29,842 nucleotides of DNA. Origin: an uncultured Dehalococcoidaceae bacterium. Its GTDB lineage: Bacteria; Chloroflexota; Dehalococcoidia; Dehalococcoidales; RBG-16-60-22. The number at the start of each line of letters is the position of its first letter. Position 1 is the stretch's first letter. The position numbers were made by a program, and so were the translations under genes. Positions 1 to 18,739 of this stretch are shown here, one piece after another. The stretch spans positions 1 to 29,842 of the forward strand of contig CAYPYL010000001.1 in NCBI GenBank assembly GCA_964414605.1. Direction: 5' to 3'. The notes beneath the pieces are model-generated. The model saw nothing but the letters and a program-made list of their open reading frames with translations. It was not told the DNA's origin and did not search any database.

Positions 1-95
1 AATAGCTTTTCGAGGTTCGTTCCCTTGGGCGGAGCGACCTCGCTGGTAACGACGAATTTTCCGGAACCAAGGGCTTCTTTGAAACGTGATACCAT
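1..95 (-). CDS. metF: Methylenetetrahydrofolate reductase MetF, 5' end only (runs off the window start; absent from ORF track)
   Basis: Manual translation from ATG at 95 gives MVSRFKEALGSGKFVVTSEVAPPKGTNLEKL. This matches the MetF N-terminus and the paralog at 17768 (EFIVTTEVGPPK). A GAGGGGG RBS lies just upstream, and the gene follows metV. Confidence 0.9.
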   Translation of the reverse strand, partial: MVSRFKEALGSGKFVVTSEVAPPKGTNLEKL

Positions 96-156
96 TATCC
101 TAACCCCCTCATAAAAACCTGTATCCTTCCCGTGTCAAAGACCATTTTTAGTTGAA

Positions 157-165
157 ATGATAGCA
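157..165 (-). promoter_or_regulatory. Possible extended -10 (TGCTATCAT) in the metV-metF spacer
   Basis: TG-n-TAnnnT pattern about 60 nt upstream of the metF ATG; pattern match only. Confidence 0.3.
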
Positions 166-176
166 TCCTTACTCCA

Positions 177-821
177 TTAAGTGATGGTGACGGCCCGCGG
201 CCTGGGGACTACGTGGTGATTTCGGGGCGCCTGATACCGGCGCATCAGGTCCAGCCTGCCCTGCTCTTTAAGTCGATTGTAGATGAGCGTCCAGGCGCAG
301 TCCTTCTCCTTATCGACCTCGCACTTGCCGTTATTGGTGCCGCCGCAGGGCCCGTTGACCAGCCCCTTGTGGCAGGCGGTGATGGGGCAGATGCCGGCGG
401 TCTCTCCGAGGATACACTGGCCGCACTGGGCGCAGGCCTCCCGGAAATAACCGGGCGTTTCTTCCACGCCGATGAACAGCGTATCCACCGCCGGAATTAT
501 CGGTTTATCAATATAAAGGTTCATGCGGTGTATACCCAGGGCGCAGCTCATCGATAGAACGGCATCGGCACCGCGGATGAACTGCTCATTTTCCTTCATG
601 GCGGCCTCGGTCATGTCGTCGCAGGCGGTGGGAATTACCATGGCGCCGGTAACGAGCTTGCCCATCTCCTGCAAATGCCCTTTCATCTCTTCTACCTGCT
701 CGATGCCGCCGGTACTGGTCAGGGTGGTACAGGTGCCGCAACCGACCACGAATATCTTATCCAGCCCCTCAAGGCCCCGCTGAATGTCTTCAATCGGTTT
801 TTGTCTTGTTATCGATTTCAT
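177..821 (-). CDS. metV: MetV, Fe-S subunit of MetVF-type methylene-THF reductase
   Basis: N-terminal GCGTC...GG motif and C-terminal 8-Cys block CAQCGQC-x8-CPITAC-x7-PC-x7-C-x7-CAW. Adjacent to metF. RBS GGAGGGG. Confidence 0.9.
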   Translation of the reverse strand: MKSITRQKPIEDIQRGLEGLDKIFVVGCGTCTTLTSTGGIEQVEEMKGHLQEMGKLVTGAMVIPTACDDMTEAAMKENEQFIRGADAVLSMSCALGIHRMNLYIDKPIIPAVDTLFIGVEETPGYFREACAQCGQCILGETAGICPITACHKGLVNGPCGGTNNGKCEVDKEKDCAWTLIYNRLKEQGRLDLMRRYQAPRNHHVVPRPRAVTIT

Positions 822-833
822 AGCTGACCCCTC

Positions 834-3800
834 CTAGCTTTCAAGGTCGCACCTCAAGCACCTTTTTGCCTCCCGGCGGGCTACGTCCTCCGTAAACCCG
901 AGCTCTATCTCTTCAAAGCTGGCTCGCCTTTCCGGGAGCGGCAGCGTCTTCACTTTAGACCTCGGTTTGAGTTCCCAGGACTCCTCCAACTCCGGCGCGG
1001 CCCCTTCGGCAACTTTTACTTTCCGGTCGTAAATCTCGACCCTTGTATCGTCGCCCCTCAAGTACTTATCAATGGCGATAGCCCCTCTCCTCCCGGCGGC
1101 AACAGCCTCGACGACCATGCCCGGCCCGGTCACGAAGTCGCCGCCGGCGAACACGCCGGTTACATTAGTGACCAGGGAGTTGCTATCGACCACCAGGGTT
1201 TCCCACCTTGTACGTTCCAGAGCGCTATCCGCAGGCAGGAAGGAGAGGTCCGGCGCCTGCCCTACGGCGGCGATAACCGTATCCGCCTCCGCGGTGAACT
1301 CCGAGCCACTCACGGGGACGGGCCGCCTTCGTCCGCTGTCATCTGGTGCTCCCAGCGTCATCCTGATGCATTGAAGCCCCGTTACCTTCCAGTTATTGCT
1401 GGTAATCCTGGTGGGGCTGGCGAGAAAACTTATATTCACACCTTCGGCGACGGCTTCATCATACTCGATATCGGAAACCGGCATTTCATCACGTGAGCGC
1501 CGGTAGTAGATACTGGCTTCACCGGCGCCGATGCGGAGCGCGGTCCGGGCGGCATCGAGGGCGACATTACCACCCCCCACGATGGCCACCCGATTGCCCA
1601 CGGTTACTTCCCTGCCCAGTCTGACATCGCGCAGGAACCTCAATCCGTAGTAAAGGCCTTCAATATCCTCGACCTCCCCGGGTATGCCGAGTCGCTGACT
1701 GCGCTGGGCACCCGCCGCGATAAACACCGAGGCGAAGCCGTCGTTTTTCAAGTCCTCGACAGTAAAATTAGTATTGATGGGGGTACCGTATTTAATCTCA
1801 ACTCCCCGCTTGATAATATAGTCGATATCCTGCTGGATGGCGGCGCTCGGCAGGCGGAACTCCGGTATCGCCACCGAAAGCATTCCACCTCCCACGGGAA
1901 GCGCTTCAAAGACCGTTACAGGGTAGCCCTCCTGCGCCAGAAAGTAGGCGCAGGCCAGGCCGGTGGGGCCTGCCCCCACCACGGCAATCTTCTCCCTCTT
2001 GGTTACCGGGAAAGGCTCGATATCACCGGTTTCCGAACCGTGCTCCGCATACCAGTCGGCGGCGAAGCGTTTCAGCGTCCTGATAGCCACGGGTTCATCA
2101 AGATCGCCGCGACGGCACCGTCCCTCACAGGGGTGGTGACAGATCCGACCACACACGGCGGCGAAGGGATTGCGTTCCCGTATGGTCTCGATGGCTTCCT
2201 TATATTCGCCCTCGGCGATATGCGCAACGTACTTGGGGATATTGATACCCGCGGGGCAGGTATGCTGACACGGCGAAATCATCAGGGTCTCGCAGACCGC
2301 AGCCGGGCATTTCTTTTCCCTGATATGCTCCTCGTACTCGCTGCGGAAGTAATTGATGGTAGATAAGACGGGATTAGGCGCCGTCTGCCCCAGGCCGCAG
2401 AGGGAACACTCCTTCACTGTCTTGGCTATCGACAGCAGGGACTCAATATCCTCGTCACGCCCCCTGCCCTCGGTAATCCTGGTAAGAATTTCCAGCATCT
2501 GGCGAGTGCCCAGTCGACAGGGTGTGCATTTCCCGCATGACTCGCTCTGGGTAAAGCTCAAAAAGTATCTGGCCACCTCCACCATGCAGGTGGCCTCGTC
2601 CATGACGACCATCCCACCGGAGCCCATGATGGAGCCGAGTCCGGCAAGCGTCTCGTATTCTATGGGTGTATCGATGAAGCGGGCGGGAATGCAGCCGCCG
2701 GAAGGTCCACCGGTCTGTACCGCCTTAAGCTGCCTGCCGCGCGGAATTCCGCCGCCGATGTTATTAATGATATGGGACAGCGGCGTGCCCATGGGCACTT
2801 CGACCAGACCGCTATTGGCGATTTTCCCGGTAAGAGCAAAAACGGCCGTGCCCTTGCTCTTCTCCGTGCCGATTCCGGCAAACCAGTCGGCGCCTTTTTC
2901 GATAATGACCGGGACAGTTGCCAGCGTTTTTACGTTATTTATAATGGTCGGTTTGCCATCCAGACCGGAGTTGGCCGGGAAGGGTGGTCTTGGGCGGGGC
3001 ATACCGCGCCGGCTCTCGATGGACGCTATCAGCGCCGTCTCCTCGCCGCAGACAAAAGCGCCGGCGCCTTCTTTTATATGGACTGTGAAATTAAAATCAG
3101 TACCGAGGATTCCTTTCCCCAGGAAATTTTTCTCCTGCGCCTGTTCGAGAGCCTTGCGAATGCGTTCTACGGCTAGCGGGTACTCGGCGCGGACATAGAT
3201 ATAGCCTTCACTGGCACCGATGGCGTAGGCGGCTATCGCCAGACCTTCCAGGACGGCATGAGGATCGGCTTCCAGAATGGAGCGGTCCATAAATGCCCCG
3301 GGGTCGCCTTCATCAGCATTGCATATCATGTATTTCTGCTCGCCGGCAGCTTTACGGCAGAATTCCCACTTGGTACCGGTGGGAAAGCCCGCCCCGCCCC
3401 TGCCCCGCAGACCGGAACTTTTTATAATGTCAATAACCTCTTCCGGCGCCATCATAAAGACCACTTTTTTGAGGGACTGGTATCCTCCCCTATTGATATA
3501 ATCGCTGATACGTTCGGGATTTATGTGCCCGCAGTTCCGCAAAACGATACGCTCCTGCTCCTGATAGAATTTAATATCCGCATATCCCGGTATTGCCTCG
3601 CCGGTCACCGGGTCGTGGTAGAAAAGGCGCTCAACCGGCTGGCCGTCGCGGAGGTGAGAAGTAACGATATCGGCGGCATCGTCTGCATCGACATGGGTAT
3701 AGAAGATGCCATCGGGTTCAACCACGACATTAGGTCCCTGCTGGCAGAAGCCGTGACAGCCGGTGAAGTCTATCTCGGCTCCGGTTACTCCCTGCTTTTT

Positions 3801-3893
3801 CAGTTCCGCCTTGAGAGCTTTGTAGACGTTGTCGCCGCCACCCGAGACACATCCGGTACCCCGGCAGACTAATACCTTGCGTTTTCGCGGCAT
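834..3893 (-). CDS. NuoF/HydB-like flavoprotein fused to a C-terminal GltD/NfnB-like FAD/NAD(P)H oxidoreductase domain (1019 aa from ATG 3893)
   Basis: N-terminal [2Fe-2S] domain (VCRGTGC...GCHGFCQQGP), GLRGRGGAGFP, NADEGDPGAFMDR, GAFVCGEETAL and CGKCTPC...CSLCGLG. These are followed by PCQHTCP, NPFAAVCGRIC, GAGPTG, GGGNVALD, YRRS, FAGGD and EAKRCLRC. ATG 3893 has RBS GGAAGGAG and lies 1 nt after the nuoE stop. Confidence 0.9.
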   Translation of the reverse strand: MPRKRKVLVCRGTGCVSGGGDNVYKALKAELKKQGVTGAEIDFTGCHGFCQQGPNVVVEPDGIFYTHVDADDAADIVTSHLRDGQPVERLFYHDPVTGEAIPGYADIKFYQEQERIVLRNCGHINPERISDYINRGGYQSLKKVVFMMAPEEVIDIIKSSGLRGRGGAGFPTGTKWEFCRKAAGEQKYMICNADEGDPGAFMDRSILEADPHAVLEGLAIAAYAIGASEGYIYVRAEYPLAVERIRKALEQAQEKNFLGKGILGTDFNFTVHIKEGAGAFVCGEETALIASIESRRGMPRPRPPFPANSGLDGKPTIINNVKTLATVPVIIEKGADWFAGIGTEKSKGTAVFALTGKIANSGLVEVPMGTPLSHIINNIGGGIPRGRQLKAVQTGGPSGGCIPARFIDTPIEYETLAGLGSIMGSGGMVVMDEATCMVEVARYFLSFTQSESCGKCTPCRLGTRQMLEILTRITEGRGRDEDIESLLSIAKTVKECSLCGLGQTAPNPVLSTINYFRSEYEEHIREKKCPAAVCETLMISPCQHTCPAGINIPKYVAHIAEGEYKEAIETIRERNPFAAVCGRICHHPCEGRCRRGDLDEPVAIRTLKRFAADWYAEHGSETGDIEPFPVTKREKIAVVGAGPTGLACAYFLAQEGYPVTVFEALPVGGGMLSVAIPEFRLPSAAIQQDIDYIIKRGVEIKYGTPINTNFTVEDLKNDGFASVFIAAGAQRSQRLGIPGEVEDIEGLYYGLRFLRDVRLGREVTVGNRVAIVGGGNVALDAARTALRIGAGEASIYYRRSRDEMPVSDIEYDEAVAEGVNISFLASPTRITSNNWKVTGLQCIRMTLGAPDDSGRRRPVPVSGSEFTAEADTVIAAVGQAPDLSFLPADSALERTRWETLVVDSNSLVTNVTGVFAGGDFVTGPGMVVEAVAAGRRGAIAIDKYLRGDDTRVEIYDRKVKVAEGAAPELEESWELKPRSKVKTLPLPERRASFEEIELGFTEDVARREAKRCLRCDLES

Positions 3894-3894
3894 A

Positions 3895-4380
3895 TTACTC
3901 CTTCCCACTCTTGCCAAATAGTCGGGCTACCTTCTTGGGATTCATGTCGCCGTGGGCTTCTTTGTTTATCATGAGATTCGGTGCCAGCGCACAGACACCG
4001 ATACAGGCGACCGTTTCGAGGGTATATTCCATGTCGTCGGTGGTTTCCCCCTCCTCAACGCCCAGGTACTGCCTGACCAGTTTCAGGATAGTCTTGCCGC
4101 CGCGCACGTGGCAGGCGGTTCCCCGACAAACCCGTACGATATTTTTACCCCGGGGATGGGTGTAAAGCTGCTCATAAAACGTAATCACCGCCTGTACCTG
4201 GCTGGGGAACAGCCCCAAGGCGGCGGCTATACGTGGTATGGCTTCCGGGGGAATATAGCCGACCTTCTCCTGGATCTCCTGGGTCAGGGGTATCAACGCC
4301 CATCTTTCACCCCGGTAACCCGCGATAATTTTATCTATCTGTCTCATGTTTACCGGGGGTGCTTTCTTTGCCTTATCCAT
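3895..4380 (-). CDS. NuoE/HydC-like [2Fe-2S] subunit
   Basis: VCRGTACHVRGG and VACIGVCALAP ligand motifs; TFY motif; 8-nt overlap with the upstream gene. Confidence 0.92.
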   Translation of the reverse strand: MDKAKKAPPVNMRQIDKIIAGYRGERWALIPLTQEIQEKVGYIPPEAIPRIAAALGLFPSQVQAVITFYEQLYTHPRGKNIVRVCRGTACHVRGGKTILKLVRQYLGVEEGETTDDMEYTLETVACIGVCALAPNLMINKEAHGDMNPKKVARLFGKSGKE

Positions 4381-7063
4381 TATCGGCAGTCCTTTCCAGT
4401 CTGACCGCGCATGATTTGAGCGCCGGCGTTTTGACCTGACGGTCGAGTACGGCAGGGAACAGGCCGTAAACGGGAGTGTTCGGGTAAGACATGGGCATAT
4501 AAAGCAGGCCGCGCGATAACGTGTTATTAACTTTAGCGGTTGCTGTTATCTCTCCCTGCGCCGAGATGACCTTTACGGTAGCGCCGTCGATTATGCCCGT
4601 TTCGGCGGCATCGTCATCGCTTATTTCCAGAAACGCTTCCGGAGAAAAACGGTTCAGCCGTCCCGACCGCGTGCTGCGCGCGCCGGTGCCAAAGTGATAA
4701 CGACTGGAGCCGACTATTAAAGTATGGGGATAGCCGTTGCTTTCCGCTTCCTGCGGAGGCGTATACTCCACGGTTAAAAACCGACCGAAACCGCTGGGGA
4801 AAAGTCCTTTATACAAACGCCGGTTCCCGTAATAGCCGTCTTCCTCTTCGGCCAGTTCCGGTTCTATAACGTCGCTGTCAACGCGGGCGGCATGATGGCA
4901 GAACGGCACCGATTCCTCGATTTCATTAAGCACTTCCTGTTGAGAGTCATACCGCAACGGGTAGTCCATCTTACCGGAGAGCTCCAGTATTATTTCCGCA
5001 TCAGGAAGGCTCTCGCCAACAGGCTCGATGGCCTTCGTTAGCTGCTGGACCCTCCCCTCGAAATTGGTGAAGGTGCCGTATTTTTCAGCGAAGCTGGCAG
5101 CCGGCAGCACCACCGAAGCCAGCGCGGCGGTTTCGGTCAGGAACATATCCGTCACCACCAGTAAATCGAGCCTCGCCAGGGCTTCCTTGACCAGGGACGT
5201 TTGAGGGAAACTCACCGCCGGATTTTCTCCCATGACGAACATCGCCTTCACCTTTCCAGTTCCCGCCGCCTCTATCATCTCCCAGGCTGTCAATCCGGCG
5301 TTCACCGGCAAGTCGCATCGCCAGCGCTCCTCGAACGTCTGCCTGTCTTGAGCGTTATTGATGTTCTTATAACCGGGCAGGAAATCGGGCAGAACGCCCA
5401 CGTCGCATGCTCCAAGGGCATTGTTCTCCCGTTGCAGGGCAAAAATCCCGCCGTGCCTGCCGGCATTCCCGGTGAGCATATTCAAATTTCCGATGGCGAT
5501 TACGGCATCGGTTCCGGTGACGTATTGCGTTATACCGTTCCCGTAGACGATAGAGGTTTGTTCGGCGCCGGCAATAATACGTGCGGCTTTCTGCATGTCT
5601 TTCCTGGGAACGCCCGTGATTTTCTCTGCGTATCCGGGTTCCTGCTGCTTCAGACTTTGAGCCCACCGCGCGAAGTTATCCGTCATACGGGTAACGAACT
5701 CTATATCCATTTTCCCCTCTTCGATAATCACCCTGGCAAGTTCGTTGAGCAGGGCTACATCGGTACCCGTGCGGGGTTTGAGCCACATATGGGCGAACTG
5801 CGATAGCGACGTCCGGCGCGGGTCTACGACGATTAAACCGGCACCTTTATTCCTGACGGCTCGCTTGATGGCATAAGCTACGGCGGGAGCCGATATTTCC
5901 GGGTCGGCCCCGATGACCATTATCACCTGTGATTTTTCCAGCGAATCTATAGTTCCGGTAGTGCCGGCGTAGCCGACGGATGTACCCAGGCCCACCCGGC
6001 TCGCGGCGCTGTAAAGACGACTGCCGTTATCAATGTTGTTGGTGCCCAGGACGACGCGAGTGAACTTCTGGAGAAGATAATTTTCCTCATTGGTGCACTT
6101 TGAGGAGCCGAATACGGCGATAGCGTCGGCGCCGTGGTTCTCTTTTATCCGGTTGAGTTCACCGGCCACCCGAGAAAGCGCTTCTTCCCAGGTAGCCTCC
6201 TGAAACTGGCCATCTACTTTAACCTGCGGATGAAGCAGTCGCTCCGGACTGTGAATAAAGTCGTACCCGTAACTCCCCCGCACGCACAGAGTGCCGGCGT
6301 TCACCTGCCCTTCCGGGGGAGGCCTGGAAAATATTACCCTGCCGTCCTTGACTCCCAGACAAACGGTGCACCCGCAGCCGCAATAAGGACATATCGTGGT
6401 GACCGTTTCCGTCGCCGTACCGCTATAAGCCCTTTCCTTCTCCATCAGGGCGCCTGTCGGGCAGATAGCCACGCAGGTGCCGCAGAAGGTGCACTCCGAT
6501 TTTTCCAGCGGCATATCGTTCAGGGTCGCCGGCCTGACCGCAGCGCCGCGGTCGATATAGTCGATAGCCCCCTCCACGACCAGCTCCTGGTCAGCCCTGA
6601 TGCACTTGCTACACATGATACACTTGGAGAGGTCGCGCTCGATAAACGAATTGACTTCTTCGATTATGTCCAGCTGCGGAATTCTCTGGAACTCGACGAG
6701 GCCGATTCCCATTTCCGCCGCCAGCTTGCGTAACTGACAGCTATTTCCCTTATCGCAAACCAGGCAGGAATCGGGGTGGCTGGCGAGGAGGAGTTTTAAG
6801 ATTTTTTTTCGGTGCTCCACCACCCGCGGTGAGTTGGTCTTGATAACCATTCCCGGCGATATAGGCGTCACGCAGGAAGCCAGCAAAGCACCGTTGCGTT
6901 CGTCCTCCACCAGGCAGAGACGGCAGGCTCCTACCGATGCCAGATTAGGGTCGTAGCAGAGAGTAGGAATATATACCCCGGATTCCCGCGCCAGGTCCAG
7001 GATAGTAGTGCCCGGGTAACCGCTTACCTCGACGTCATTCAGGACAATCGTAATTGCTTCCAC
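4373..7063 (-). CDS. FdhA/NuoG-like molybdopterin-oxidoreductase-family subunit with a non-canonical active site
   Basis: [2Fe-2S] (CYDP...GACRLC...SC), HPDSCLVC-x5-C, 2x[4Fe-4S] domain, CPYCGCGC...LC cluster, GSSKCTNEENY, NNID, LPAASFAEKYGTFTNFEGRVQ and a molybdopterin-dinucleotide-type C-terminal domain. GTG start directly after the upstream TGA. Confidence 0.85.
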   Translation of the reverse strand: MEAITIVLNDVEVSGYPGTTILDLARESGVYIPTLCYDPNLASVGACRLCLVEDERNGALLASCVTPISPGMVIKTNSPRVVEHRKKILKLLLASHPDSCLVCDKGNSCQLRKLAAEMGIGLVEFQRIPQLDIIEEVNSFIERDLSKCIMCSKCIRADQELVVEGAIDYIDRGAAVRPATLNDMPLEKSECTFCGTCVAICPTGALMEKERAYSGTATETVTTICPYCGCGCTVCLGVKDGRVIFSRPPPEGQVNAGTLCVRGSYGYDFIHSPERLLHPQVKVDGQFQEATWEEALSRVAGELNRIKENHGADAIAVFGSSKCTNEENYLLQKFTRVVLGTNNIDNGSRLYSAASRVGLGTSVGYAGTTGTIDSLEKSQVIMVIGADPEISAPAVAYAIKRAVRNKGAGLIVVDPRRTSLSQFAHMWLKPRTGTDVALLNELARVIIEEGKMDIEFVTRMTDNFARWAQSLKQQEPGYAEKITGVPRKDMQKAARIIAGAEQTSIVYGNGITQYVTGTDAVIAIGNLNMLTGNAGRHGGIFALQRENNALGACDVGVLPDFLPGYKNINNAQDRQTFEERWRCDLPVNAGLTAWEMIEAAGTGKVKAMFVMGENPAVSFPQTSLVKEALARLDLLVVTDMFLTETAALASVVLPAASFAEKYGTFTNFEGRVQQLTKAIEPVGESLPDAEIILELSGKMDYPLRYDSQQEVLNEIEESVPFCHHAARVDSDVIEPELAEEEDGYYGNRRLYKGLFPSGFGRFLTVEYTPPQEAESNGYPHTLIVGSSRYHFGTGARSTRSGRLNRFSPEAFLEISDDDAAETGIIDGATVKVISAQGEITATAKVNNTLSRGLLYMPMSYPNTPVYGLFPAVLDRQVKTPALKSCAVRLERTADNG

Positions 7064-7879
7064 TCAAGCTGTCTCCCCATCCTGTACCTTCGGCTGGAGA
7101 GATTCAATCCACGACTGGTCGCCACGCGCCACGGAACGGATACCGGTCAGCAGCCGGGAACTGGCGGCGGCTTTGGGGATAAACCCCACCGCCCCCACCT
7201 TTTTACTGGCAAGGACATTCTCCTCGTCGTCGTACTGCGTCAGCATCAGGACCTTGGCGGTCTTTTGTTTCTGGCAAATTTCACGGGCGGCGTCCAGTCC
7301 GTTCATCACCGGCATGATAATGTCCATCACCACGACATCCGGTATGAGCTCCATAGTCTTCTCCAGCGCCTCTTTCCCGTTGACGGCCTCCCCGACGACC
7401 TGCATATCCCGCTGCAGCGTAAGCACGGATTTTATCCCGTCCCTTACCACCGCGTGGTCATCGACAATCAGCACCCTGATTTTCTTGGTAGCCCTGTCCA
7501 GCAGGGCCTGGATGCGGGGTACCAGGGCAACCGGCTCGACGGGCTTGGCGAGGAAATCTTCGGCGTCTATCTGCATACCCTCATCCATTCTCCAACCCTT
7601 GAGCAGTTGCTTTTCCGGCGGAGCATTGATAACCATGATTGGTAGATTGCCAAACCCCAGGGTCTGCTTCATCCATTTGTGGAACAGAAAGGCATCGCCG
7701 CGGGGCATAATCGTGCCCAGGACAATCGCGTCGGGCTCGTGAGAGCGTACCGACTCTTTAGCCTCTTCCTGGTCGCCGGCGGTGACGACGGTATACCCTA
7801 CTTTTTCCAGGGCCTTCTTTACCTCTTCTAAAAATTCTTCTTCGTCATCCACTATCAGAATCGTTTGTTCTTTTTCCAT
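7064..7879 (-). CDS. Tandem pseudo-receiver + NarL-type receiver protein with no output domain (271 aa from ATG 7879)
   Basis: First REC domain ILIVDDE...IVLGTIMP...KP; second REC domain VLIVDDH...VVMDIIMP...LTQYDD...PK. No HTH. RBS AAAGGAGG before ATG 7879. Confidence 0.88.
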   Translation of the reverse strand: MEKEQTILIVDDEEEFLEEVKKALEKVGYTVVTAGDQEEAKESVRSHEPDAIVLGTIMPRGDAFLFHKWMKQTLGFGNLPIMVINAPPEKQLLKGWRMDEGMQIDAEDFLAKPVEPVALVPRIQALLDRATKKIRVLIVDDHAVVRDGIKSVLTLQRDMQVVGEAVNGKEALEKTMELIPDVVVMDIIMPVMNGLDAAREICQKQKTAKVLMLTQYDDEENVLASKKVGAVGFIPKAAASSRLLTGIRSVARGDQSWIESLQPKVQDGETA

Positions 7880-7930
7880 TTTTTGCCTCCTTTCACCGGA
7901 AGCGCCTATAGTTACCACTATATGATGCAT

Positions 7931-7963
7931 AGTATAAACAGGGAATAGGGGATTTACCCCGAT
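7931..7963 (-). promoter_or_regulatory. Candidate promoter of the left redox operon: -10 TATACT (7936-7931) plus imperfect palindrome ATAGGGGATTTACCCCGAT (7945-7963)
   Basis: Read directly. The palindrome overlaps the expected -35 position and recurs at 14837-14855. Confidence 0.5.
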
Positions 7964-8082
7964 AACCGGCAGACTAAACCCCTGAATTTACGAAAATATA
8001 CCCTGACAATGGGATTAACGAAAAATGAACGGACGGCGTTACGGAGGAGCGGCAGTTTGTATGATTCCGGGTCAGGCGAAGA

Positions 8083-8736
8083 CTAAAGAGTGATGATACC
8101 CTTACGCAGAGCGGCTTTAACCAGTTCGACGCGGTTATGGACACCCAGCTTCAGCATGAGATTGGTCTTGTGCCCTTCCACGGTCTTGGGGGTTATGACC
8201 AGGATATTCGCTATTTCCTGTGTGCTGCGGCCTTCCGCGAGCAACTTGAATACCTCGCGCTCGCGTGTTGTTAATCTGTTATACGGGTCCTGCATCGTAC
8301 GTTGGCCGGCGGAGTCCCGATAGTTGTCCACCATCAGCTTGGTAACGGACGGCGAAAGGTAAGAGTCCCCCCGGAAGACCGAGCGTATCCCCACCGTGAG
8401 TTCCGAAGACGCCGCCGCCTTACTGATAAATCCGGAGGCGCCTGACTCGATAACCGGAAAGAAATACTCTTTATCATCGTACTGGGTAAGGACAAGCACT
8501 TTGGTCCTCGGGAATTCTTTACTTATGCGGCGCGTTGCCTCCAGACCGCCCATCACCGGCATGGCAATATCCATGAGCACAACATCAGGGTCCAGCTCCC
8601 GCACCTTGTCCAGTGCTTCGTTGCCGTTGGTAGCTTCTCCCACTACCTCGATATCACCGGATAATGCCAGCAGGGCGCTAATGCCGTCGCGTATGATGGT
8701 ATGGTCGTCAACTACCAGCACTCTTATCTTTTGCAT
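8083..8736 (-). CDS. NarL/FixJ-family response regulator (REC + LuxR-type HTH)
   Basis: VLVVDDH, PDVVLMDIAMP, LTTREREVFKLLAEGRSTQEIA, TPKTVEGHKTNLMLKL. Confidence 0.95.
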   Translation of the reverse strand: MQKIRVLVVDDHTIIRDGISALLALSGDIEVVGEATNGNEALDKVRELDPDVVLMDIAMPVMGGLEATRRISKEFPRTKVLVLTQYDDKEYFFPVIESGASGFISKAAASSELTVGIRSVFRGDSYLSPSVTKLMVDNYRDSAGQRTMQDPYNRLTTREREVFKLLAEGRSTQEIANILVITPKTVEGHKTNLMLKLGVHNRVELVKAALRKGIITL

Positions 8737-9970
8737 ATGCTATTTCCTGTCCGACCGGTATCCTGGCCCAGACCTTGGTACCCTTCCCCGGTTCAGATTC
8801 GATTCCGCTGGTGCCGCCGAGAAAACCGATTCTCTCCCTCATGCTGAACAGACCGCGCCCCCGACCGCTCTCCTCTACATCGGTAATTTCTGACACGTTA
8901 AATCCCTGGCCGTCATCGGTAATGGTGAGTATAAATTCATCCTGCCTGAATTCCAGTATCATGGCAGCATTCTTTGCTTTGGAATGTTTGACGATGTTGC
9001 CGATGGCGCTCTGGACGAAACGGAAAAGGGCTGCCTCGACATCAGGTGGAAACCTCATTTCTTTGCCTTTTGTCTCTATGGTCACGTTGATTTCAAGCAA
9101 CTGCAACCTGGACTCCACGTTCTGGCGAATCGCCGGTACCAGTCCCAGCGTATCCAGTAAAGCCGGGTGCAGGTTGGATATCAGCCGACTTACCTCGTTG
9201 TGCACCTGCACGGTCAATGCCTGTACCTTTTTCAGTCCGGCGGTAAATTCAGGCTCATGCTGGCCGGACATGGCGGATAACTCAATCAATGCCTGCAACT
9301 GTAGGGCTATCCCGGAAAGCGATTGACTGGTCTCGTCGTGAAGTTCGCGGGCTATCCTTCTCCTCTCGTCCTCCTCCGCCATCAGGTTCTGGCGGGCGAG
9401 CCTGCGCAGCCTCTCCCGCGCTTTCCTCAAGCGCTCGTACAGTCTGGCGTGTTCTACGGCGATGCCGAGCTGGTCGCCGATAGCGTAAAGCAGATGCATA
9501 TCGCTGGTGGTAAATTTACGGGACTCGCGACTGGCCACGTTCAGAACGCCCAATACCTTATCCCTGGCCCGGAGGGGCACACATACATATGCCTTCAGCC
9601 CCTCCGCCGCAACCATCTCCCGATGTGCCACCCGCGGGTCCGCGGAGATATCTTCGAGGAGAATAGCCTTGCCGGTCTTGGCCACGCTGCCGGAAATACC
9701 TTCGCCCAGGCTCAAACTTACATTCTCCACGAATTCCTTGCTTAGACCGCGATGTACTACGTGGGAGAGTTCCTGGGTGAGTTCATCGATGAGTAATATC
9801 TCACCGATGGTCCCGTTCATGATATCCAGGGTGCTGTCAAGACCGACACCGAGAATGGCATTTAAGTCCCAAAGGCCGCTTAACGCCGCCGATATCCTGC
9901 TTAATACCAGAAGCTCGGACTGCTGCCCGCCCTTTTTCACTTTTAGCCCATGCGTCCCAGAGGAGTTCAT
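8708..9970 (-). CDS. Cytoplasmic GAF + HisKA_3 + HATPase sensor histidine kinase
   Basis: GAF (VPLRARDKVLGVLNV), H-box ERRRIARELHDETSQ, NIVKHS, DDGQGF, GRGLFSM, GKGT. No transmembrane segment seen. ATG 9970 preferred over TTG 9994. Confidence 0.92.
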   Translation of the reverse strand: MNSSGTHGLKVKKGGQQSELLVLSRISAALSGLWDLNAILGVGLDSTLDIMNGTIGEILLIDELTQELSHVVHRGLSKEFVENVSLSLGEGISGSVAKTGKAILLEDISADPRVAHREMVAAEGLKAYVCVPLRARDKVLGVLNVASRESRKFTTSDMHLLYAIGDQLGIAVEHARLYERLRKARERLRRLARQNLMAEEDERRRIARELHDETSQSLSGIALQLQALIELSAMSGQHEPEFTAGLKKVQALTVQVHNEVSRLISNLHPALLDTLGLVPAIRQNVESRLQLLEINVTIETKGKEMRFPPDVEAALFRFVQSAIGNIVKHSKAKNAAMILEFRQDEFILTITDDGQGFNVSEITDVEESGRGRGLFSMRERIGFLGGTSGIESEPGKGTKVWARIPVGQEIAYAKDKSAGS

Positions 9971-10024
9971 TTTTCCCCACACTCCTCCCCTCAACTATAT
10001 TACGGCAACTATAACGTATCAATT

Positions 10025-10054
10025 AGCCTATAAAAAATATGTGTGTCTTGTCAA
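10025..10054 (-). promoter_or_regulatory. sigma70-like promoter for the kinase/regulator pair (TTGACA-N18-TAGGCT)
   Basis: Perfect -35 at 10054-10049 with a weak -10 at 10030-10025. Confidence 0.4.
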
Positions 10055-10087
10055 TCGTGAAAGGGGAACTCTAACAGCCTGCATAGA

Positions 10088-11308
10088 CTATCCGCTCCTG
10101 ATGCTGCGGATAATTTCACCCAGTTTGGGCCTTTTCCCATACATGAGCAGGTAAATTCTGAAAACCTTGATGGATATATATAATACACCGATGATAGAGA
10201 GTGCCAGTAACACGATGCTGGTAGCCATTTCCCAGGCAGGGATATCGCTGACTCCCAGCCTTAGCATCGCTTCTACGGGAGCCGTGATGGGGAAAATAGT
10301 CAGGACTGTCCAGATTGGGCTTTTCGGGAATATCATCAATAAAGATGAGAACCAGAGGGGTACGATGGCAAACATGGAATAAATCAGGGATAATTGCGTT
10401 CCTTCCCGGGCATTGGGGCTGATGGCGCCGACACCCGCCGAAAGCGCAGTGAACAATAGATATCCCAATATGAAATAGATAATCCCCAGAACGATGAAGT
10501 TAGCCGGTATCTGTATTGTGCTGAAAAAACCGCCGAAAGTGGATGAGGCCAGGTTCAACAGGAGCGGCAGTGAGATAAGCCAGACTACCACCTGTACCAG
10601 ACCAGCTATACCCAGTCCCAACACCTTTCCAGTGAGTAATTGCCGGGTGGTAACGGAGGACAGTAATACCTCAATAAGCCGGCTCTCTTTCTCCTCTCCC
10701 AGTCCCTGTACCATATAGCCGGCAAAGAAATTCAGAGAGAGGGCAAGCAGCAGGCTGAAAATAGCGGGAACAAGGAGATTCGCGAAGCCGCCCTGCTCGG
10801 TAGCCACTGCGCCGGTTTCGGTAAGTCTGGTAGTCGCCAGATATAACGGGGATTCAACGAGCTGAATAATACCGGCAGGCACTTCCCCCGATAAGAGATT
10901 ACTCGTAAGAAAACTCTTTATGGCGGACTGAATTCCCGGGGGTGGTTCCAGCTGTTTCTCCAGAGTATACAGGTTTACTAATCCCGCCGACGTGTAAGAC
11001 GTTGAAATGACGAAATATTCCGAAACGTCGTCCGCGAGTAAGGCAGCCGTCGCCTCATCCTGCGTAGGGTAGCGGACCATCTCGATTGGCCCCTGGGCGG
11101 TATACCGATCGAATCCGCCGATTTCATCAACGTACCCGATGGTAGTCGTTTCTACTTCCGACGGCTCGATGATTGACGATATCAGCTGGACGACGCCTAT
11201 CGCCAGGAGAGCCAGGACCGGCACGATAAGGGTCATCACGATAAATCCTGTCCGCTTTATCGTATGCAGGAATTCGTGCCTGAATATCAGCAGCGTCTTC
11301 CTATCTAT
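10088..11308 (-). CDS. ABC-2 type (NatB-like) permease; probable non-canonical ATA start at 11308
   Basis: EEKESRLIEVLLSSV, LLTGKVLG and multiple TM helices. The frame stays open upstream of the ORF-track start and gives IDRKTLLIFRHEFLHTIKRTGFIVM after SD AAGGAGGT. Confidence 0.88.
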   Translation of the reverse strand: MDRKTLLIFRHEFLHTIKRTGFIVMTLIVPVLALLAIGVVQLISSIIEPSEVETTTIGYVDEIGGFDRYTAQGPIEMVRYPTQDEATAALLADDVSEYFVISTSYTSAGLVNLYTLEKQLEPPPGIQSAIKSFLTSNLLSGEVPAGIIQLVESPLYLATTRLTETGAVATEQGGFANLLVPAIFSLLLALSLNFFAGYMVQGLGEEKESRLIEVLLSSVTTRQLLTGKVLGLGIAGLVQVVVWLISLPLLLNLASSTFGGFFSTIQIPANFIVLGIIYFILGYLLFTALSAGVGAISPNAREGTQLSLIYSMFAIVPLWFSSLLMIFPKSPIWTVLTIFPITAPVEAMLRLGVSDIPAWEMATSIVLLALSIIGVLYISIKVFRIYLLMYGKRPKLGEIIRSIRSG

Positions 11309-12195
11309 TTTTTCGCCACCTCCTTCAGGAATATCTCGTTAAGCGAGGGAGTGGCCATCTCAAAACGATTGATGACTATACCGCGGCTTACCAGCTGCTC
11401 CAGGATTTGTTGAGGGGTTGTCTTCTCATCCAGCAACAGTTCGACGTAGCCCTTGTGCTGGCGTTTCCCGGTAACCCCGGATACGTCACCCAGTTCACCT
11501 TCGGTATTAACGAAAACCGAATTGCCTCTGTATTTCGACTTTATTTCAGCCAGGTCACCGTAAAGGACGGCGCGCCCGTTGTTTACCATCAGGATACGGT
11601 CGCACAGTTCCTCCACCTGGTTCATCTGATGAGCGCTCAAGACGACGGCTTTACCCTGATTCTTCAAGTCGACACATATCTCTCTCAACAGCTCTACGTT
11701 CACCGGGTCGAGGCCGGAAAATGGCTCGTCCAGAATAACCAGCTGCGGGTCATGCGTGATAGTAACAACGAACTGAATAATCTGACTCATACCCTTGCTC
11801 ATTTCCTCGATTTTCTTTCCCTTATTGGTTAACATGCCTGTTTTTTCGAGCAGTTCGCTGGCCCTTTCTTCCGCCCGATGCCGGTCCATGCCCTTAAGGG
11901 AAGCAAGGTATATTATTGTTTCAAGGACTTTCAGTTTTTTATACAGGCCTCTTTCCTCGGGCAGGTAGCCGAGGTTATTCTGGGCATCTTCACCGAACTT
12001 CTTGCCGAAGACAAATACCTCACCCGAATCCGGTCTGATGATGTCCATCGCCATCCTGATTGTCGTGGTCTTGCCCGCGCCGTTGGGGCCTATCAGACCG
12101 AATATCTCGCCCTGATTGACCGAGAAAGACAGGTCATCAACAGCGATTTTATCCGCAAATGTCTTGACTACATGGCTGACTTTAACTGCCTGCAT
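11305..12195 (-). CDS. ABC transporter ATP-binding subunit (NatA-like)
   Basis: Walker A GPNGAGKTT, signature MSKGM, Walker B VILDEP, H-loop SAH. Confidence 0.95.
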   Translation of the reverse strand: MQAVKVSHVVKTFADKIAVDDLSFSVNQGEIFGLIGPNGAGKTTTIRMAMDIIRPDSGEVFVFGKKFGEDAQNNLGYLPEERGLYKKLKVLETIIYLASLKGMDRHRAEERASELLEKTGMLTNKGKKIEEMSKGMSQIIQFVVTITHDPQLVILDEPFSGLDPVNVELLREICVDLKNQGKAVVLSAHQMNQVEELCDRILMVNNGRAVLYGDLAEIKSKYRGNSVFVNTEGELGDVSGVTGKRQHKGYVELLLDEKTTPQQILEQLVSRGIVINRFEMATPSLNEIFLKEVAKK

Positions 12196-12217
12196 TACAT
12201 GAACACCTTAATTCCAT

Positions 12218-12226
12218 ATTATATCA
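12218..12226 (-). promoter_or_regulatory. Extended -10 promoter (TGATATAAT) of the ABC operon
   Basis: Perfect TG-n-TATAAT about 22 nt upstream of ATG 12195. Confidence 0.65.
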
Positions 12227-12451
12227 TATTGTTAAGAACGCCAGTTACTTAATAACACGTCATCATCCGGCGTACCCCACGCTGTTGCATACACGATGAA
12301 AACCAGTTTTCGAACCGGAATTTGGCTTGGTGACTTAACGCGGGAGTCTCCAGCCAGACCGTGCTAGAGAAAAAGTAGAACTCTCCATATATTTTGAATT
12401 TAGCGCTTACCCCGGCCCCCCCCAATCAGGCTATAGTTACGCTAACCAATC

Positions 12452-12480
12452 TTGACAAAGGGCGATTCTAGCAGTACCTT
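12452..12480 (+). promoter_or_regulatory. sigma70-like promoter (TTGACA-N17-TACCTT) for the right-hand kinase/regulator pair
   Basis: Perfect -35, 17-nt spacer and a TAnnnT -10 just upstream of the kinase start. Confidence 0.55.
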
Positions 12481-12492
12481 TATTCATACAAG

Positions 12493-14121: not shown

Positions 14122-14124
14122 CGT

Positions 14125-14778
14125 ATGAAGAAAATAAAGGTATTGATAGTTGATGACCATACCCTGGTACGGGCCGGAATACGTTCCCTGCTGATGCTCG
14201 TCGATGATATCGAAGTAGTCGGCGAGGCATCGGACGGTAAAGAAGCCCTGACAAAGGTAAGGCAACTCATGCCTGACGTGGTACTCATGGACCTGGCAAT
14301 GCCGGTCATGGGCGGACTCGAAGCCACACGACGTTTACGAAAGGAATTCCCCGGCATAAAGGTACTGGCACTGACACAATATGACGATAGCGAATATGTT
14401 ATTCCCATCATCGAAGCAGGTGCCAGCGGTTTTGTAACTAAGATGTCGGCGTTTACGGAGCTTGCCGCGGCTATCGAAGCCGCCAATAGAGGAGAATCCT
14501 ACCTGTCTTCAACTGCCGCCACGGCTCTTGTCGAGGAATATCAGCAGAAAATACCATCTAACGGCGAACAGGACCCTTACCAGCAGCTAACGGATAGGGA
14601 GAGGGAAGTGATTAAGCTGGTTGCGGAAGGGCATACCAGCCGTGAGATTGCCGAGATACTTATCGTCAGCCCCAAGACGGTGGAGTGGTATAAAAGCAGC
14701 TTGATGAACAAGCTGAACCTCCGCAGCAAGACCGACCTGATTAAGTATGCCATCCGCAAGCGGATAATAACAATATAG
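14125..14778 (+). CDS. NarL/FixJ-family response regulator (REC + LuxR-type HTH)
   Basis: VLIVDDH, PDVVLMDLAMP, LTDREREVIKLVAEGHTSREIA, SPKTVEWYKSSLMNKL. Confidence 0.95.
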   Translation: MKKIKVLIVDDHTLVRAGIRSLLMLVDDIEVVGEASDGKEALTKVRQLMPDVVLMDLAMPVMGGLEATRRLRKEFPGIKVLALTQYDDSEYVIPIIEAGASGFVTKMSAFTELAAAIEAANRGESYLSSTAATALVEEYQQKIPSNGEQDPYQQLTDREREVIKLVAEGHTSREIAEILIVSPKTVEWYKSSLMNKLNLRSKTDLIKYAIRKRIITI

Positions 14779-14929: not shown

Positions 14930-14986
14930 TAAGTAGTATATTAACCGTCGATTGTTGCCACTCAACAGAGATTGAGGTGTTTGCTG

Positions 14987-18670: not shown

Positions 18671-18739
18671 GGTGCCTTTGGTCAGGTATATTACCGGGTG
18701 GCCATAATGGCTATATTCACGGTAGTGGAGGAGAATGAG

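Follow-up and report, generated by a model that had tools for sequence, protein, structure and literature searches.

A predicted NuoF-type and GltD-type fusion subunit encoded with MetV and MetF in a Dehalococcoidales operon

The minus strand at positions 834-3893 of the window (the whole stretch of DNA analysed, 29,842 nucleotides of contig CAYPYL010000001.1 from an uncultured Dehalococcoidaceae bacterium) carries an open reading frame for a 1019-aa protein that begins with ATG at 3893, with a TTG at 3917 as a second possible start. On the basis of its alignments and motifs (Table 1), the protein is a fusion of a HydB/BfuB-type NuoF homologue (residues 1-538) and a GltD/NfnL-type FAD/NADP(H) module (residues 539-1019). 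Our main reading, to which we give a probability of roughly 0.55, is that the fusion binds the dinucleotides in a soluble complex of five subunits (BfuA-like, BfuC/NuoE-like, BfuB::GltD, MetV, and MetF) that reversibly couples NADH, NADPH, and methylene-THF. We hold with good confidence the claim that the protein belongs to a MetVF-linked complex in which NAD(H) and NADP(H) have separate sites, the association with MetVF being drawn from synteny. Existing annotations call fusion proteins of this kind simply ‘NuoF’ or ‘FAD-dependent oxidoreductase’. We found no described NuoF/HydB-GltD fusion in the accessible literature, of which our coverage was partial; an earlier description may exist.

Table 1. 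Predicted genes, domains, and motifs of the operon and its surroundings; residue numbers refer to the fusion protein.
Feature	Window position	Strand	Residues or length	Basis or assignment
BfuB/HydB-like NuoF homologue fused to GltD/NfnL-like module	834..3893	(-)		Pfam and PDB matches
BfuB half	2280..3893	(-)	1-538	Alignments, motifs, Bfu-specific residue equivalents
[2Fe-2S] cysteines (B5)			C10, C15, C46, C50	N-terminus, thioredoxin-like domain
2Fe-2S_thioredx			12-86	Pfam
GRGGAGFPTG			164-173	FMN/NADH site
Complex1_51K			165-336	Pfam
GAFMDR	3282-3299		199-204	FMN/NADH site
GAFVCGEE			278-285	FMN/NADH site
SLBB			359-408	Pfam
GGPSGG			395-400	
NADH_4Fe-4S			447-531	Pfam
[4Fe-4S] cluster B1/N3			C453, C456, C459, C499	
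EHIREKKCPAAVC			522-534	H523/C529/C534 motif
GltD/NfnL-type half	837..2279	(-)	539-1019	End-to-end alignment with 9bov_A, 9n5u_A, 8oh5_C
Fer4_20			538-627	Pfam
Two [4Fe-4S] clusters			C542, C546, C581, C585, C589, C593, with C1012, C1015	Last two at the extreme C-terminus
GAGPTG			640-645	FAD motif
Pyr_redox_2			643-942	Pfam
GGGNVA			773-778	NADP(H) motif
YRR	1497-1505		797-799	NADP(H)-associated
NuoE/HydC/BfuC-like [2Fe-2S] subunit	3895..4380	(-)	161 aa	Pfam 2Fe-2S_thioredx, 158 bits; NCBIfam NuoE
BfuA/NuoG/FdsA-like subunit	4373..7063	(-)	896 aa	Pfam, PDB alignments, ligand comparison
MetV, NGPCGG motif	177..821	(-)	214 aa	Pfam PF12225/DUF5981, 124 bits
MetF N-terminus (MVSRFKEALGSGKFVVTSEVAPPKG...), cut by window edge	1..95	(-)		Full-length MetF (PF02219) at the equivalent position in loci L001 and L081
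Double-receiver response regulator, abuts BfuA-like gene	7064-7930	(-)		Pfam
LuxR-type response regulator	8083-8736	(-)		Pfam
GAF-HisKA_3 histidine kinase	8708-9994	(-)		Pfam

The N-terminal half resembles the BfuB subunits of bifurcating hydrogenases. Residues 6-538 align without large gaps with the HydB chain of A. mobile NiFe-HydABCSL (7t2r_B) and with the HydB proteins of A. woodii, T. kivui, and T. maritima, at 767 bits (7t2r_B) and 733 bits. The sequence-only reading had assigned this half to bifurcating-type HydB rather than to complex I, quoting GAFMDR, GAFVCGEE, GGPSGG, and EHI...KKCPAAVC; these motifs, and the YRR that it quoted for the GltD-like domain, were all located in the protein. 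Its N-terminal [2Fe-2S] domain is borne out by four cysteines and a PF01257 match of 27.9 bits (cut-off 24.8). The assignment itself agrees with the alignment of GAFMDR to DPGAFMDR of A. mobile, in which the alanine and methionine correspond to A202 and M204 of NiFe-HydB; Bfu enzymes conserve both residues, and non-bifurcating homologues lack them, as well as clusters B2-B5 (Schut et al. 2022). BfuC-like (C1 [2Fe-2S]) and BfuA-like (N-terminal Fe-S clusters) subunits are encoded alongside the fusion, and the Bfu feature that is missing is the ferredoxin-like domain that carries clusters B3 and B4 at the C-terminus of BfuB and forms the ferredoxin-binding site.

The place of that domain is taken by the GltD module. 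Alignments to 7t2r_B, 9bov_B, and 9n5u_B end at fusion residues 538-539, beyond which the BfuB chains run 55-65 residues further; that to 7q4v_B reaches residue 568, and in this chain the stretch past 538-539 bears ferredoxin-type Cys motifs. A Pfam search found no ferredoxin-type Fer4 dicluster domain in the fusion. Instead, a GltD/NfnB-like module sits there, as had been proposed, its cluster cysteines beginning 7 residues past C534 of CPAAVC. The earlier statement that the 2x[4Fe-4S] domain is absent holds for the ferredoxin-like domain, but the clusters are not simply lost, as the GltD module brings two of its own. This module is circularly permuted, with its RCLRC segment at the C-terminus, a kind seen in Stn/NfnABC enzymes. 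It aligns end to end with 9bov_A 102-567 (fusion residues 540-1016, 411 bits), 9n5u_A 104-594, and 8oh5_C 102-566, and its tail aligns with the N-terminal part of T. maritima NfnB (4ylf_B 13-43). A single chain carries an FMN/NAD(H) site of the NuoF/HydB type together with a GltD-like FAD site bearing YRR, the motif associated with NADP(H), in line with the original suggestion; from these motifs, we infer NAD(H) at the FMN and NADP(H) at the FAD. In an AlphaFold2 model built from a 48-sequence alignment, the individual domains fold (mean pLDDT 74.7); with a pTM of 0.44 and pLDDT below 50 at the junction (residues 530-544), the model gives no usable inter-domain geometry.

The fusion gene is the third of a tight operon in the order NuoG/FdhA-like, NuoE-like, fusion, MetV, and MetF, with 0-12 nt spacers in the window, the operon call resting on gene spacing. 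The NuoE-like gene, which keeps its place in all loci, has its stop codon 1 nt ahead of the fusion ATG in the window, and metV begins 12 nt past the fusion stop codon. The complete order is retained in about 50 Dehalococcoidales loci, and metV directly follows the fusion in 45 of the 48 informative loci with the order G-E-fusion; virtually all close relatives of the fusion gene have metV-metF behind it. Three co-oriented regulatory genes (7064..9994) lie directly upstream, with a matching layout in L001 and L081. A promoter and terminator scan of positions 1-12500 gave counts at shuffle level and did not provide operon boundaries. Neither the window nor a 23-kb homologous locus contains the membrane and connecting subunits nuoA-D or nuoH-N, and a complex I fragment was ruled out on the grounds that no membrane subunits are nearby. 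By its gene content, the operon is the ‘X-type’ MetFV methylene-THF reductase cluster of Yi et al. 2021 (PMC8515935). This context, namely metVF, the FdhA-like subunit that appears to be dead, and the ‘X-type’ cluster, was missing from the sequence-only reading. The window also contains a second operon, GltD::Fer4::MvhD-MetVF, in which another permuted GltD module is linked to MetVF.

Across 69 fusion homologues, the cofactor ligands, YRR, GAFMDR, and the junction spacing are invariant; C453/456/459/499 and C10/15/46/50 are invariant across fusions, or nearly so in a distant clade. In other lineages, the fused core pairs with real FdhA, [FeFe]-HydA, or [NiFe] hydrogenase, and these pairings suggest a Bfu subfamily in which NADP(H) has taken over from the ferredoxin branch. 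In all, four different partner modules accompany the core, and some of these lie in Clostridia genomes that were assembled into multi-megabase contigs. A single origin of the fusion is unsupported, as the identities of its two halves to different relatives disagree: for the N and C halves, respectively, L054-type proteins show 71% and 49% identity, whereas L055 shows 51% and 68%. Neighbor-joining trees of the two halves are incongruent, tentatively so, as the trees carry no support values.

In the proposed complex, the FMN would be a hub linked to three ends: to NAD(H) directly; through B1 and the A-subunit clusters to MetV/MetF and methylene-THF; and through C1, the GltD clusters, and FAD to NADP(H), which would occupy the place held by ferredoxin in canonical Bfu enzymes. 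In Nfn-Bfu, the low-potential path runs from C1 through B3/B4 to ferredoxin, which docks on the BfuB ferredoxin-like domain, and GltD replaces the very domain that carries this dock. The coupled complex is also favored by the second GltD-MetVF operon in the window and by Moorella HdrA, whose GltD domain is the NAD(P)H site. As a tentative formulation that we consider possible though doubtful, the leading candidate for the reaction would be 2 NADH + NADP+ + CH2-THF <-> 2 NAD+ + NADPH + CH3-THF, and reversible. Exergonic methylene-THF reduction by NADH would pay for NADP+ reduction; in reverse, methyl-THF oxidation with NAD+, which is endergonic by itself, would be pulled by NADPH. Against such coupling stands the potential of methylene-THF (about -200 mV), more positive than those of both nucleotide couples (NADH about -280 mV; NADP+ reduction about -380 mV in vivo). 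A Bfu-style scheme with a mid-potential third substrate is therefore inapplicable, and NADH at the FMN would be needed as the bifurcated donor, a role that, to our knowledge, has been demonstrated for no Bfu enzyme. MetV might dock on the A subunit or on the GltD module, both candidate sites. As MetFV of C. ljungdahlii accepts reduced ferredoxin, according to Yi et al. 2021 (PMC8515935), ferredoxin could still enter the complex through MetV. The idea of a parallel Bfu branch with its ferredoxin arm hard-wired to NADP(H), in which MetVF would be a methylene-THF reductase that bifurcates NADH or, in the opposite direction, is assisted by NADPH, is one we put forward with reserve and at less than even odds.

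The same potentials admit a simpler enzyme, built of the same five subunits, in which NADH at the FMN and NADPH at the FAD would each feed MetVF through Fe-S wires, irreversibly in the reductive direction and with the two nucleotides energetically uncoupled. As both nucleotides are more negative than CH2-THF/CH3-THF at -200 mV, coupling is thermodynamically unneeded; moreover, the second operon resembles a linear NADPH-to-MetVF chain, and MetFV-RnfC2 of A. woodii is described in Yi et al. 2021 (PMC8515935) as a simple NADH-dependent enzyme. However, one would hardly expect a simple diaphorase to keep the invariant Bfu-specific set (N-terminal [2Fe-2S], A/M, H/C/C, and BfuC); non-bifurcating homologues lack B2-B5, and in organisms living near thermodynamic limits, two nucleotide sites with about 10 clusters would be wasteful for an exergonic reaction. 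We regard this non-coupled, dual-donor reductase as rather unlikely.

A second alternative is a stand-alone Stn/Nfn-like transhydrogenase of NADH, NADPH, and ferredoxin that is merely co-transcribed with a separate MetVF using its products. The earlier comparison with the Stn parts list, with GltD on the B rather than the NuoG-like subunit, is upheld, the nearest solved relatives being BfuB and the GltD insert of BfuA. The parts equal those of Stn/NfnABC, NfnA usually has an inactive Fdh-like domain (that of Csac is a pterin-free Fdh-like remnant), and in S. ovata the stn genes adjoin metVF but are not part of that enzyme. Nevertheless, the transhydrogenase implied by that comparison is not the best reading and seems quite improbable to us: the B3/B4 domain, the ferredoxin binder in Nfn-Bfu, is replaced, metV and metF follow, and the NuoG-like subunit appears dead. 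In addition, the gene order with metVF is kept far more tightly than co-regulation demands, the fused core pairs elsewhere with catalytic partners (FdhA, HydA, and NiFe), and the Fe-S wire of the A subunit, whose ligands do not vary among 45 sequences, would have no endpoint if there were no third substrate.

The A subunit has kept the ligands for one [2Fe-2S] and four [4Fe-4S] clusters, along with a full-length Mo/W-bisPGD fold, in which Tyr351 and Ser352 replace the catalytic Cys/Sec and His, and LQRENNALG stands in place of LRGQNNVQG of formate dehydrogenase alpha (LRGQNN to LQRENN), displacing the catalytic Arg. The clade consensus is GSRLYSA, versus CARLCHA in real FdhA partners, and among relatives the Cys/Sec position is Tyr or else H, D, Q, or E, and the His position Ser, Asn, Gly, or Asp. 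Pfam found neither Fer4_20 nor Pyr_redox_2 in the 896 residues. Judged by sequence, the subunit is a catalytically dead pseudo-formate dehydrogenase with its Fe-S wire kept. A real formate dehydrogenase is ruled out by the active-site residues. More broadly, a functional Mo/W enzyme (formate dehydrogenase, or an unknown-substrate reductase with a Tyr metal ligand) using NAD(H) and NADP(H) is hardly credible in spite of the full-length fold, the 535 bits to FdsA/YjgC-type chains, and the real FdhA that accompanies more distant fusion relatives, given that Cys/Sec, His, and Arg are lost with variable replacements, that conservation is lower in the Mo domains than in the Fe-S region, whereas the real-Fdh clade shows the opposite pattern, and that the NCBIfam Fdh-alpha score (652) falls just under the cut-off of 666. 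Metabolic reconstructions of Dehalococcoidia may mistake this subunit for a formate dehydrogenase.

Of all the steps in the Wood-Ljungdahl pathway, methylene-THF reduction is the most exergonic, and energy conservation at this step, together with its reverse drive in acetate and methyl oxidisers, has been debated since the discovery of the Hdr-MetFV complex of Moorella, for which we know of no second acceptor. The present operon is a defined, widespread candidate, with a Bfu-type core whose ferredoxin arm appears swapped for an NADP(H) arm attached to MetVF. If this is true, it would identify, for these organisms, the second redox partner of methylene-THF reductases of the pathway, a long-open question, and the core paired with FdhA, [FeFe]-HydA, or [NiFe] would share out the electrons of formate or H2 to both NAD+ and NADP+, with no part for ferredoxin. 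The fusion subfamily also departs systematically from the BfuBC cofactor set, stated to be invariant (Schut et al. 2022), and, because the fused core recurs with four partner modules, its members offer natural ‘domain-swap’ variants with which to ask how, and at what point, the flavin/Fe-S site bifurcates. Together, the fusion and its operon point to an uncharacterised wiring of NADH, NADPH, and one-carbon metabolism.

Among known systems, the bifurcating-hydrogenase BfuB proteins share with the fusion the B5 [2Fe-2S], the FMN/NADH motifs with A and M, B1, and EHI..KKCPAxxC. Unlike them, the fusion has no Fer4 dicluster after CPAxxC, and its operon has no hydrogenase. The Stn/NfnABC enzymes (S. 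ovata StnABC 8oh5, C. saccharolyticus 9bov, and T. sibiricus 9n5u) likewise have NuoE-, NuoF-, and NuoG/Fdh-like subunits, an N-terminal [2Fe-2S] on the NuoF-like subunit, an Fdh-like domain without a catalytic site, and the same permuted GltD/NfnL type with two [4Fe-4S] clusters and YRR (345-411 bits). However, their GltD is an insert in the A subunit that follows its N-terminal domain, whereas here it forms the C-terminus of the B subunit, displacing the B3/B4 domain, and the operon includes metV-metF. FdsABG (R. capsulatus 6tg9; also 9wxb and 7vw6), which is non-bifurcating (Schut et al. 2022), has the same three-subunit layout, and its A subunit matches over the full length at 524-531 bits; but the catalytic Cys/His/Arg present there are lost here, and the fusion has an N-terminal [2Fe-2S], the H/C/C motif, and a GltD module, none of which is present in FdsB. 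The available part of Yi et al. 2021 (PMC8515935) places nuoE/F/G homologues directly upstream of metV-metF in ‘X-type’ MetFV, as in the window. By its account, these nuoEFG-metFV clusters, with Dethiosulfatarculus sandiegensis (Desulfobacterales) as the type organism, occur widely across Chloroflexi and Desulfobacterales, are unstudied, and are speculated to be bifurcating; in that part, it makes no mention of the GltD fusion, the loss of the ferredoxin-like domain, or the dead Fdh site. In MetFV-HdrABC-MvhD of Moorella thermoacetica (6S-type MTHFR), MetFV is likewise attached to a large flavin/Fe-S electron-input module whose NAD(P)H site is also a GltD domain, in HdrA; there, the module is of the Hdr/Mvh type, whereas here it is of the NuoEFG/Bfu type.

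The sequence-only reading placed at 834-3893 a HydB/NuoF-type subunit whose C-terminal ferredoxin-like domain has been swapped for a GltD module. These coordinates correspond to a minus-strand ORF of 1019 amino acids (BfuB::GltD, here called the fusion), whose ATG lies 1 nt past the stop of the preceding gene, with an alternative in-frame TTG start at 3917, and every motif quoted in that reading was found at its position. The domain swap itself is borne out by two observations: Pfam detects no ferredoxin-type dicluster domain in the fusion, and the alignments to the B subunits 7t2r_B, 9bov_B and 9n5u_B end at residues 538-539, a point beyond which the solved BfuB chains run on into the ferredoxin-like domain. 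In the HydB proteins of T. kivui and A. woodii the first cysteine of the CxxCxxCxxxCP motif lies 12 residues past CPAGVC, and in the fusion C542, which belongs to the GltD module, lies 7 residues past C534.

Residues 6-538 align nearly gap-free to B subunits from structurally solved electron-bifurcating enzymes, with 767 bits for the A. mobile NiFe-HydB (7t2r_B), 733 for HydB (7q4v_B), 678 and 662 for NfnB (9bov_B and 9n5u_B) and 654 for StnB (8oh5_B), as compared with 345-405 bits for various chains of complex I NuoF and FdsB. Residues H523, C529 and C534 presumably correspond to the B2/zinc site of BfuB in HydABC structures. According to the alignment, the A and M of GAFMDR are A202 and M204 of the A. 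mobile enzyme, which are among the residues kept in Bfu enzymes and not in non-bifurcating homologues (Schut et al. 2022). Residues 540-1016 match, from one end to the other, the GltD/NfnL-like insert in the A subunit of Nfn-Bfu/Stn and are circularly permuted, in that the segment FEEIELGF...EAKRCLRC forms the extreme C-terminus of the fusion and the N-terminus of classical NfnB (4ylf_B 13-43). This half has FAD and NADP(H) glycine motifs, a YRR motif (IYYRRSRDEMP vs IVYRRTEREMP in NfnB) and eight cysteines (C542, C546, C581, C585, C589, C593, C1012 and C1015), and thus supplies ligands for two [4Fe-4S] clusters.

The 69 full-length homologues compared, which form two divergent clades, show no or almost no variation in the cofactor ligands, H523/C529/C534, the B1 cysteines, YRR and the junction spacing. 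Clusters with 76-96% identity to the fusion number more than 120, all of ~1020 aa, and the closest relatives are proteins from Dehalococcoidales/Chloroflexota MAGs labelled only 'NuoF', 'hydrogenase' or 'FAD-dependent oxidoreductase'.

Features of the window and of related loci (nucleotide positions unless residues are named)
Feature	Location	Strand	Remark
MetF start (operon 1)	from 95	-	cut off by window edge
MetV (operon 1)	821-177	-	PF12225
Fusion ORF	ATG 3893 to stop 834-836	-	1019 aa; third of five close-packed genes
NuoE-like protein	4380-3895	-	
NuoG/FdsA-like protein	7063-4373	-	896 aa
Degenerate active site, residues 342-355	5999-6040	-	Tyr351 at 6011-6013
LQRENNALG	residues 543-551 of NuoG/FdhA-like protein		replaces catalytic Arg motif LRGQNNVQG
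Regulator set of operon 1	7064-9994	-	
Regulator set of operon 2	12493-14778, 18698-19594	+	
PAS-GAF histidine kinase	12493-14121	+	
LuxR-type regulator	14125-14778	+	
707-aa fusion	14972-17095	+	permuted GltD/NfnL-type module, 2x[4Fe-4S] domain, MvhD
MetV2	17092-17775	+	
MetF2	17768-18670	+	
Double-receiver regulator	18698-19594	+	
2761-aa ORF	20603-28888	-	right-handed beta-helix, NosD-like repeats
Thioredoxin-like [2Fe-2S]	fusion residues 12-86		Pfam
Complex1_51K	fusion residues 165-336		Pfam
GAFMDR	fusion residues 199-204		
GAFVCGEE	fusion residues 278-285		
SLBB	fusion residues 359-408		Pfam
GGPSGG	fusion residues 395-400		
NADH_4Fe-4S	fusion residues 447-531		Pfam
EHIREKKCPAAVC	fusion residues 522-534		
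Fer4_20	fusion residues 538-627		Pfam
Pyr_redox_2	fusion residues 643-942		Pfam
YRR	fusion residues 797-799		
Counterparts of fusion residues 540-1016	9bov_A 102-567; 9n5u_A 104-594; 8oh5_C 102-566		
HydC-HydB::GltD-HydA operons	L080 7457-12846; L082/L083 7487-12940; L084 7493-12929		Clostridia/Bacillota
Fusion, BfuA-like protein, [NiFe] subunits	L055 295-7400		one Dehalococcoidales MAG locus

The genomic setting of the fusion is strongly conserved. In the window, the NuoG-like gene of operon 1 is preceded by co-oriented genes for an abutting double-receiver response regulator, a LuxR-type regulator and a GAF histidine kinase. When one genome per species was scanned, relatives of the fusion turned up in 271 genome stretches, and the order NuoG-like, NuoE-like, fusion occurs in 53 fetched loci. 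Of these, 48 reach at least 900 nt downstream of the fusion, and in 45 metV follows directly and then metF; the three exceptions are one truncated locus, one scoring artefact in which both genes are present, and one locus of the real-Fdh type. The run fusion-metV-metF was also found in 5 further loci without the upstream part, and Pfam annotation of a 23-kb locus on a contig of 1.1 Mb shows counterparts of the kinase, of the regulators and of all five operon genes, the last being a PF02219 MTHFR.

On the evidence of its active site, the NuoG-like subunit of operon 1 is a dead formate dehydrogenase. Its whole length aligns with FdsA-type alpha subunits and with B. subtilis YjgC (524-535 bits), but where FdsA has DTCARVCHSPT and LRGQNNVQG it reads DNGSRLYSAAS and LQRENNALG, so that the catalytic Cys/Sec is replaced by Tyr and the His by Ser. 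Of the 45 full-length subunits in the metVF clade, 41 have Tyr at the Cys/Sec position; the other residues seen there across all loci are His, Asp, Gln and Glu, and the position of the catalytic His is occupied by Ser, Asn, Gly or Asp. The ligands of the [2Fe-2S], His-ligated, two ferredoxin-type and Molybdop_Fe4S4 clusters are invariant in these 45 sequences with the exception of C158. This ferredoxin-type [4Fe-4S] ligand (window 6590-6592, minus strand) is Asp in 36/45 sequences of the MetVF-linked clade, that of the window among them, and Cys in all ten real-FdhA partners; Asp158 could give an Asp-ligated or [3Fe-4S] cluster with an altered potential along the wire that leads to MetVF. Conservation in the metVF clade is higher in the Fe-S region (0.82) than in the Mo domains (0.74 and 0.62), an order that is reversed in the clade with intact active sites (0.70 vs 0.79 and 0.75). 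A pterin-free Fdh-like remnant is also present in C. saccharolyticus NfnA.

In Nfn-Bfu enzymes, electrons from NADPH pass along FAD-A7-A6-A3-A2-A1-B1 to FMN (A, B and C denote Fe-S clusters of BfuA, BfuB and BfuC). [quoted passage not shown] The GltD cluster domain of the fusion occupies the place of this ferredoxin-like domain, with an even shorter linker. We propose that the C1 branch would terminate at FAD/NADP(H) rather than at ferredoxin, and that the B1/A-subunit wire, having lost its catalytic terminus, would lead to MetV/MetF. With published potentials of -200 mV for CH2-THF/CH3-THF, about -280 mV for the NAD couple and about -380 mV in vivo for the NADP couple, NADH is the mid-potential couple, and the complex may catalyze 2 NADH + NADP+ + CH2-THF = 2 NAD+ + NADPH + CH3-THF (probability about 0.3). 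As this reaction is near equilibrium, it would be reversible: the surplus energy of methylene-THF reduction would be captured as NADPH in the reductive direction, and in the oxidative direction the oxidation of methyl-THF by NAD+, endergonic by itself, would be driven by NADPH. Beyond the homology of the wiring we infer the whole of this coupled scheme, and its main weakness is that we know of no Bfu enzyme shown to bifurcate from NADH at FMN.

A non-coupled enzyme, in which NADH or NADPH each simply reduces methylene-THF, would be thermodynamically sufficient, although we consider it doubtful. The sequence-only reading likened the parts of the fusion to those of the Stn transhydrogenase. A stand-alone enzyme of that kind with MetVF merely co-transcribed, much as S. 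ovata stn adjoins metVF without a shared complex, appears improbable, because the ferredoxin-binding domain is gone from the fusion and the conserved wire of the A subunit would be left without an end point. A functional Mo enzyme is very unlikely. The NuoG-like subunit scores just below the NCBIfam Fdh-alpha cut-off, and it may be annotated automatically as formate dehydrogenase.

More distant fusions, ~50% identical and with the same junction, occur with other partners in several lineages. In Anaerolineales, Planctomycetota, Armatimonadota, Spirochaetia and others, the NuoE-like protein and the fusion are followed by an FdhA with an intact active site, either CARLCH or the selenocysteine form CAR(L/T)-TGA-H, mostly amid Wood-Ljungdahl genes (acsE, cooC, fhs, folD, RACo, hdr-mvhD-metVF). 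At the in-frame TGA, FdhA is called as two separate ORFs in L061 (gap at ~12069-12095), L063 (gap at ~6083-6130) and L076 (gap at ~12153-12164). In Clostridia the gene after the NuoE-like protein and the fusion encodes the [FeFe]-hydrogenase HydA; this type comprises more than 120 protein clusters, and several members come from multi-megabase contigs. From this arrangement a trimeric hydrogenase is predicted that is linked to NAD(H) and NADP(H) and independent of ferredoxin. L082/L083 also have a HydS-like sigma-54 regulator upstream of the operon. The Dehalococcoidales locus L055, where the fusion is followed by a BfuA-like protein (648 aa) and [NiFe] small and large subunits, has the layout of the A. 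mobile bifurcating hydrogenase NiFe-HydABCSL, but with a GltD-fused B subunit. At low environmental concentrations, formate or H2 would lie between the NAD and NADP couples, so that a Bfu-style NAD+/NADP+ split would also be coherent in these relatives.

The nearest relatives of the NuoF half differ from those of the GltD half. Fusions of the L054 type (L054, L058 and L062) are 70-71% identical to the window fusion in the NuoF half and 47-50% in the GltD half, whereas that of L055 is 51% and 68% identical, respectively. The NJ trees of the two halves, which carry no support values, likewise disagree, and the operon-2 GltD of the window falls together with the GltD half of L054-type fusions. 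This discordance suggests exchange of the GltD module at a fixed CPAxVC-x7-C junction. The fused architecture recurs in about a dozen further clusters of the 50%-identity representative library, mostly with a degenerate NuoF part. Some 8 clusters of ~1000-1130 aa combine a pseudo-NuoF, devoid of FMN glycine motifs and B1 cysteines, with GltD and in some cases a C-terminal Fer4, and many library proteins of ~650 aa consist of the NuoF 4Fe-4S helical domain and GltD only (clusters of these observations: P0128, P0130, P0132, P0133, P0140, P0149, P0162, P0217; P0175, P0176, P0185 and similar).

The window organism possesses a second MetVF system, also with an Nfn-type NADP(H) module, which strengthens the link of GltD modules to MetVF. 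The GltD module (YRR context ILYRRTRAEMP), MetV and MetF of operon 2 are 43%, 42% and 63% identical to those of operon 1, MetF being compared with that of the homologous locus L001. The same six-gene arrangement was found in two other Chloroflexota contigs (L085 and L086), and the 707-aa fusion has more than 120 close Chloroflexota clusters named HdrA, 'formate dehydrogenase beta' or FAD-dependent oxidoreductase; operon 2 appears to represent a further undescribed type of MetFV, one whose input module is of the NADP(H) kind. Paralogous two-component sets of a GAF-HisKA_3 kinase, a LuxR-type and a double-receiver regulator flank both operons and are kept with their operon in other genomes (L001, L081, L085 and L086), which points to dedicated expression under separate control. 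The presence of two MetVF systems, each with its own such set, also suggests that a simpler NADPH-linked enzyme (operon 2) and an NADH/NADPH-linked one (operon 1) are used under different conditions. The neighboring 2761-aa ORF, probably encoding a giant surface or secreted protein, is unrelated to the fusion.

Passages of Yi et al. 2021 (PMC8515935) describe metFV genes of Dethiosulfatarculus sandiegensis that are preceded by nuoEFG homologues, an arrangement designated there as an unstudied 'X type' MTHFR, widespread in Desulfobacterales and Chloroflexi, for which bifurcation was speculated, and a passage of a biogas metagenome study reports expression of a similar fdh-nuoE-nuoF-metVF cluster. 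These passages mention neither the GltD fusion nor the loss of the ferredoxin-like domain nor the dead Fdh site. No description of a NuoF/HydB-GltD fusion was found in the papers that were read. The four InterPro domains by which Schut et al. 2022 picked BfuB sequences include IPR017896, which we take to be the ferredoxin-type 4Fe-4S domain, and a selection of this kind probably places these fusions outside their census. Compared with the Bfu family, the fusion lacks one defining feature, the clusters B3/B4, and compared with Stn it lacks another, a GltD module in the A subunit; as it has the other defining sequence features of each, it is set apart from both families as a variant.
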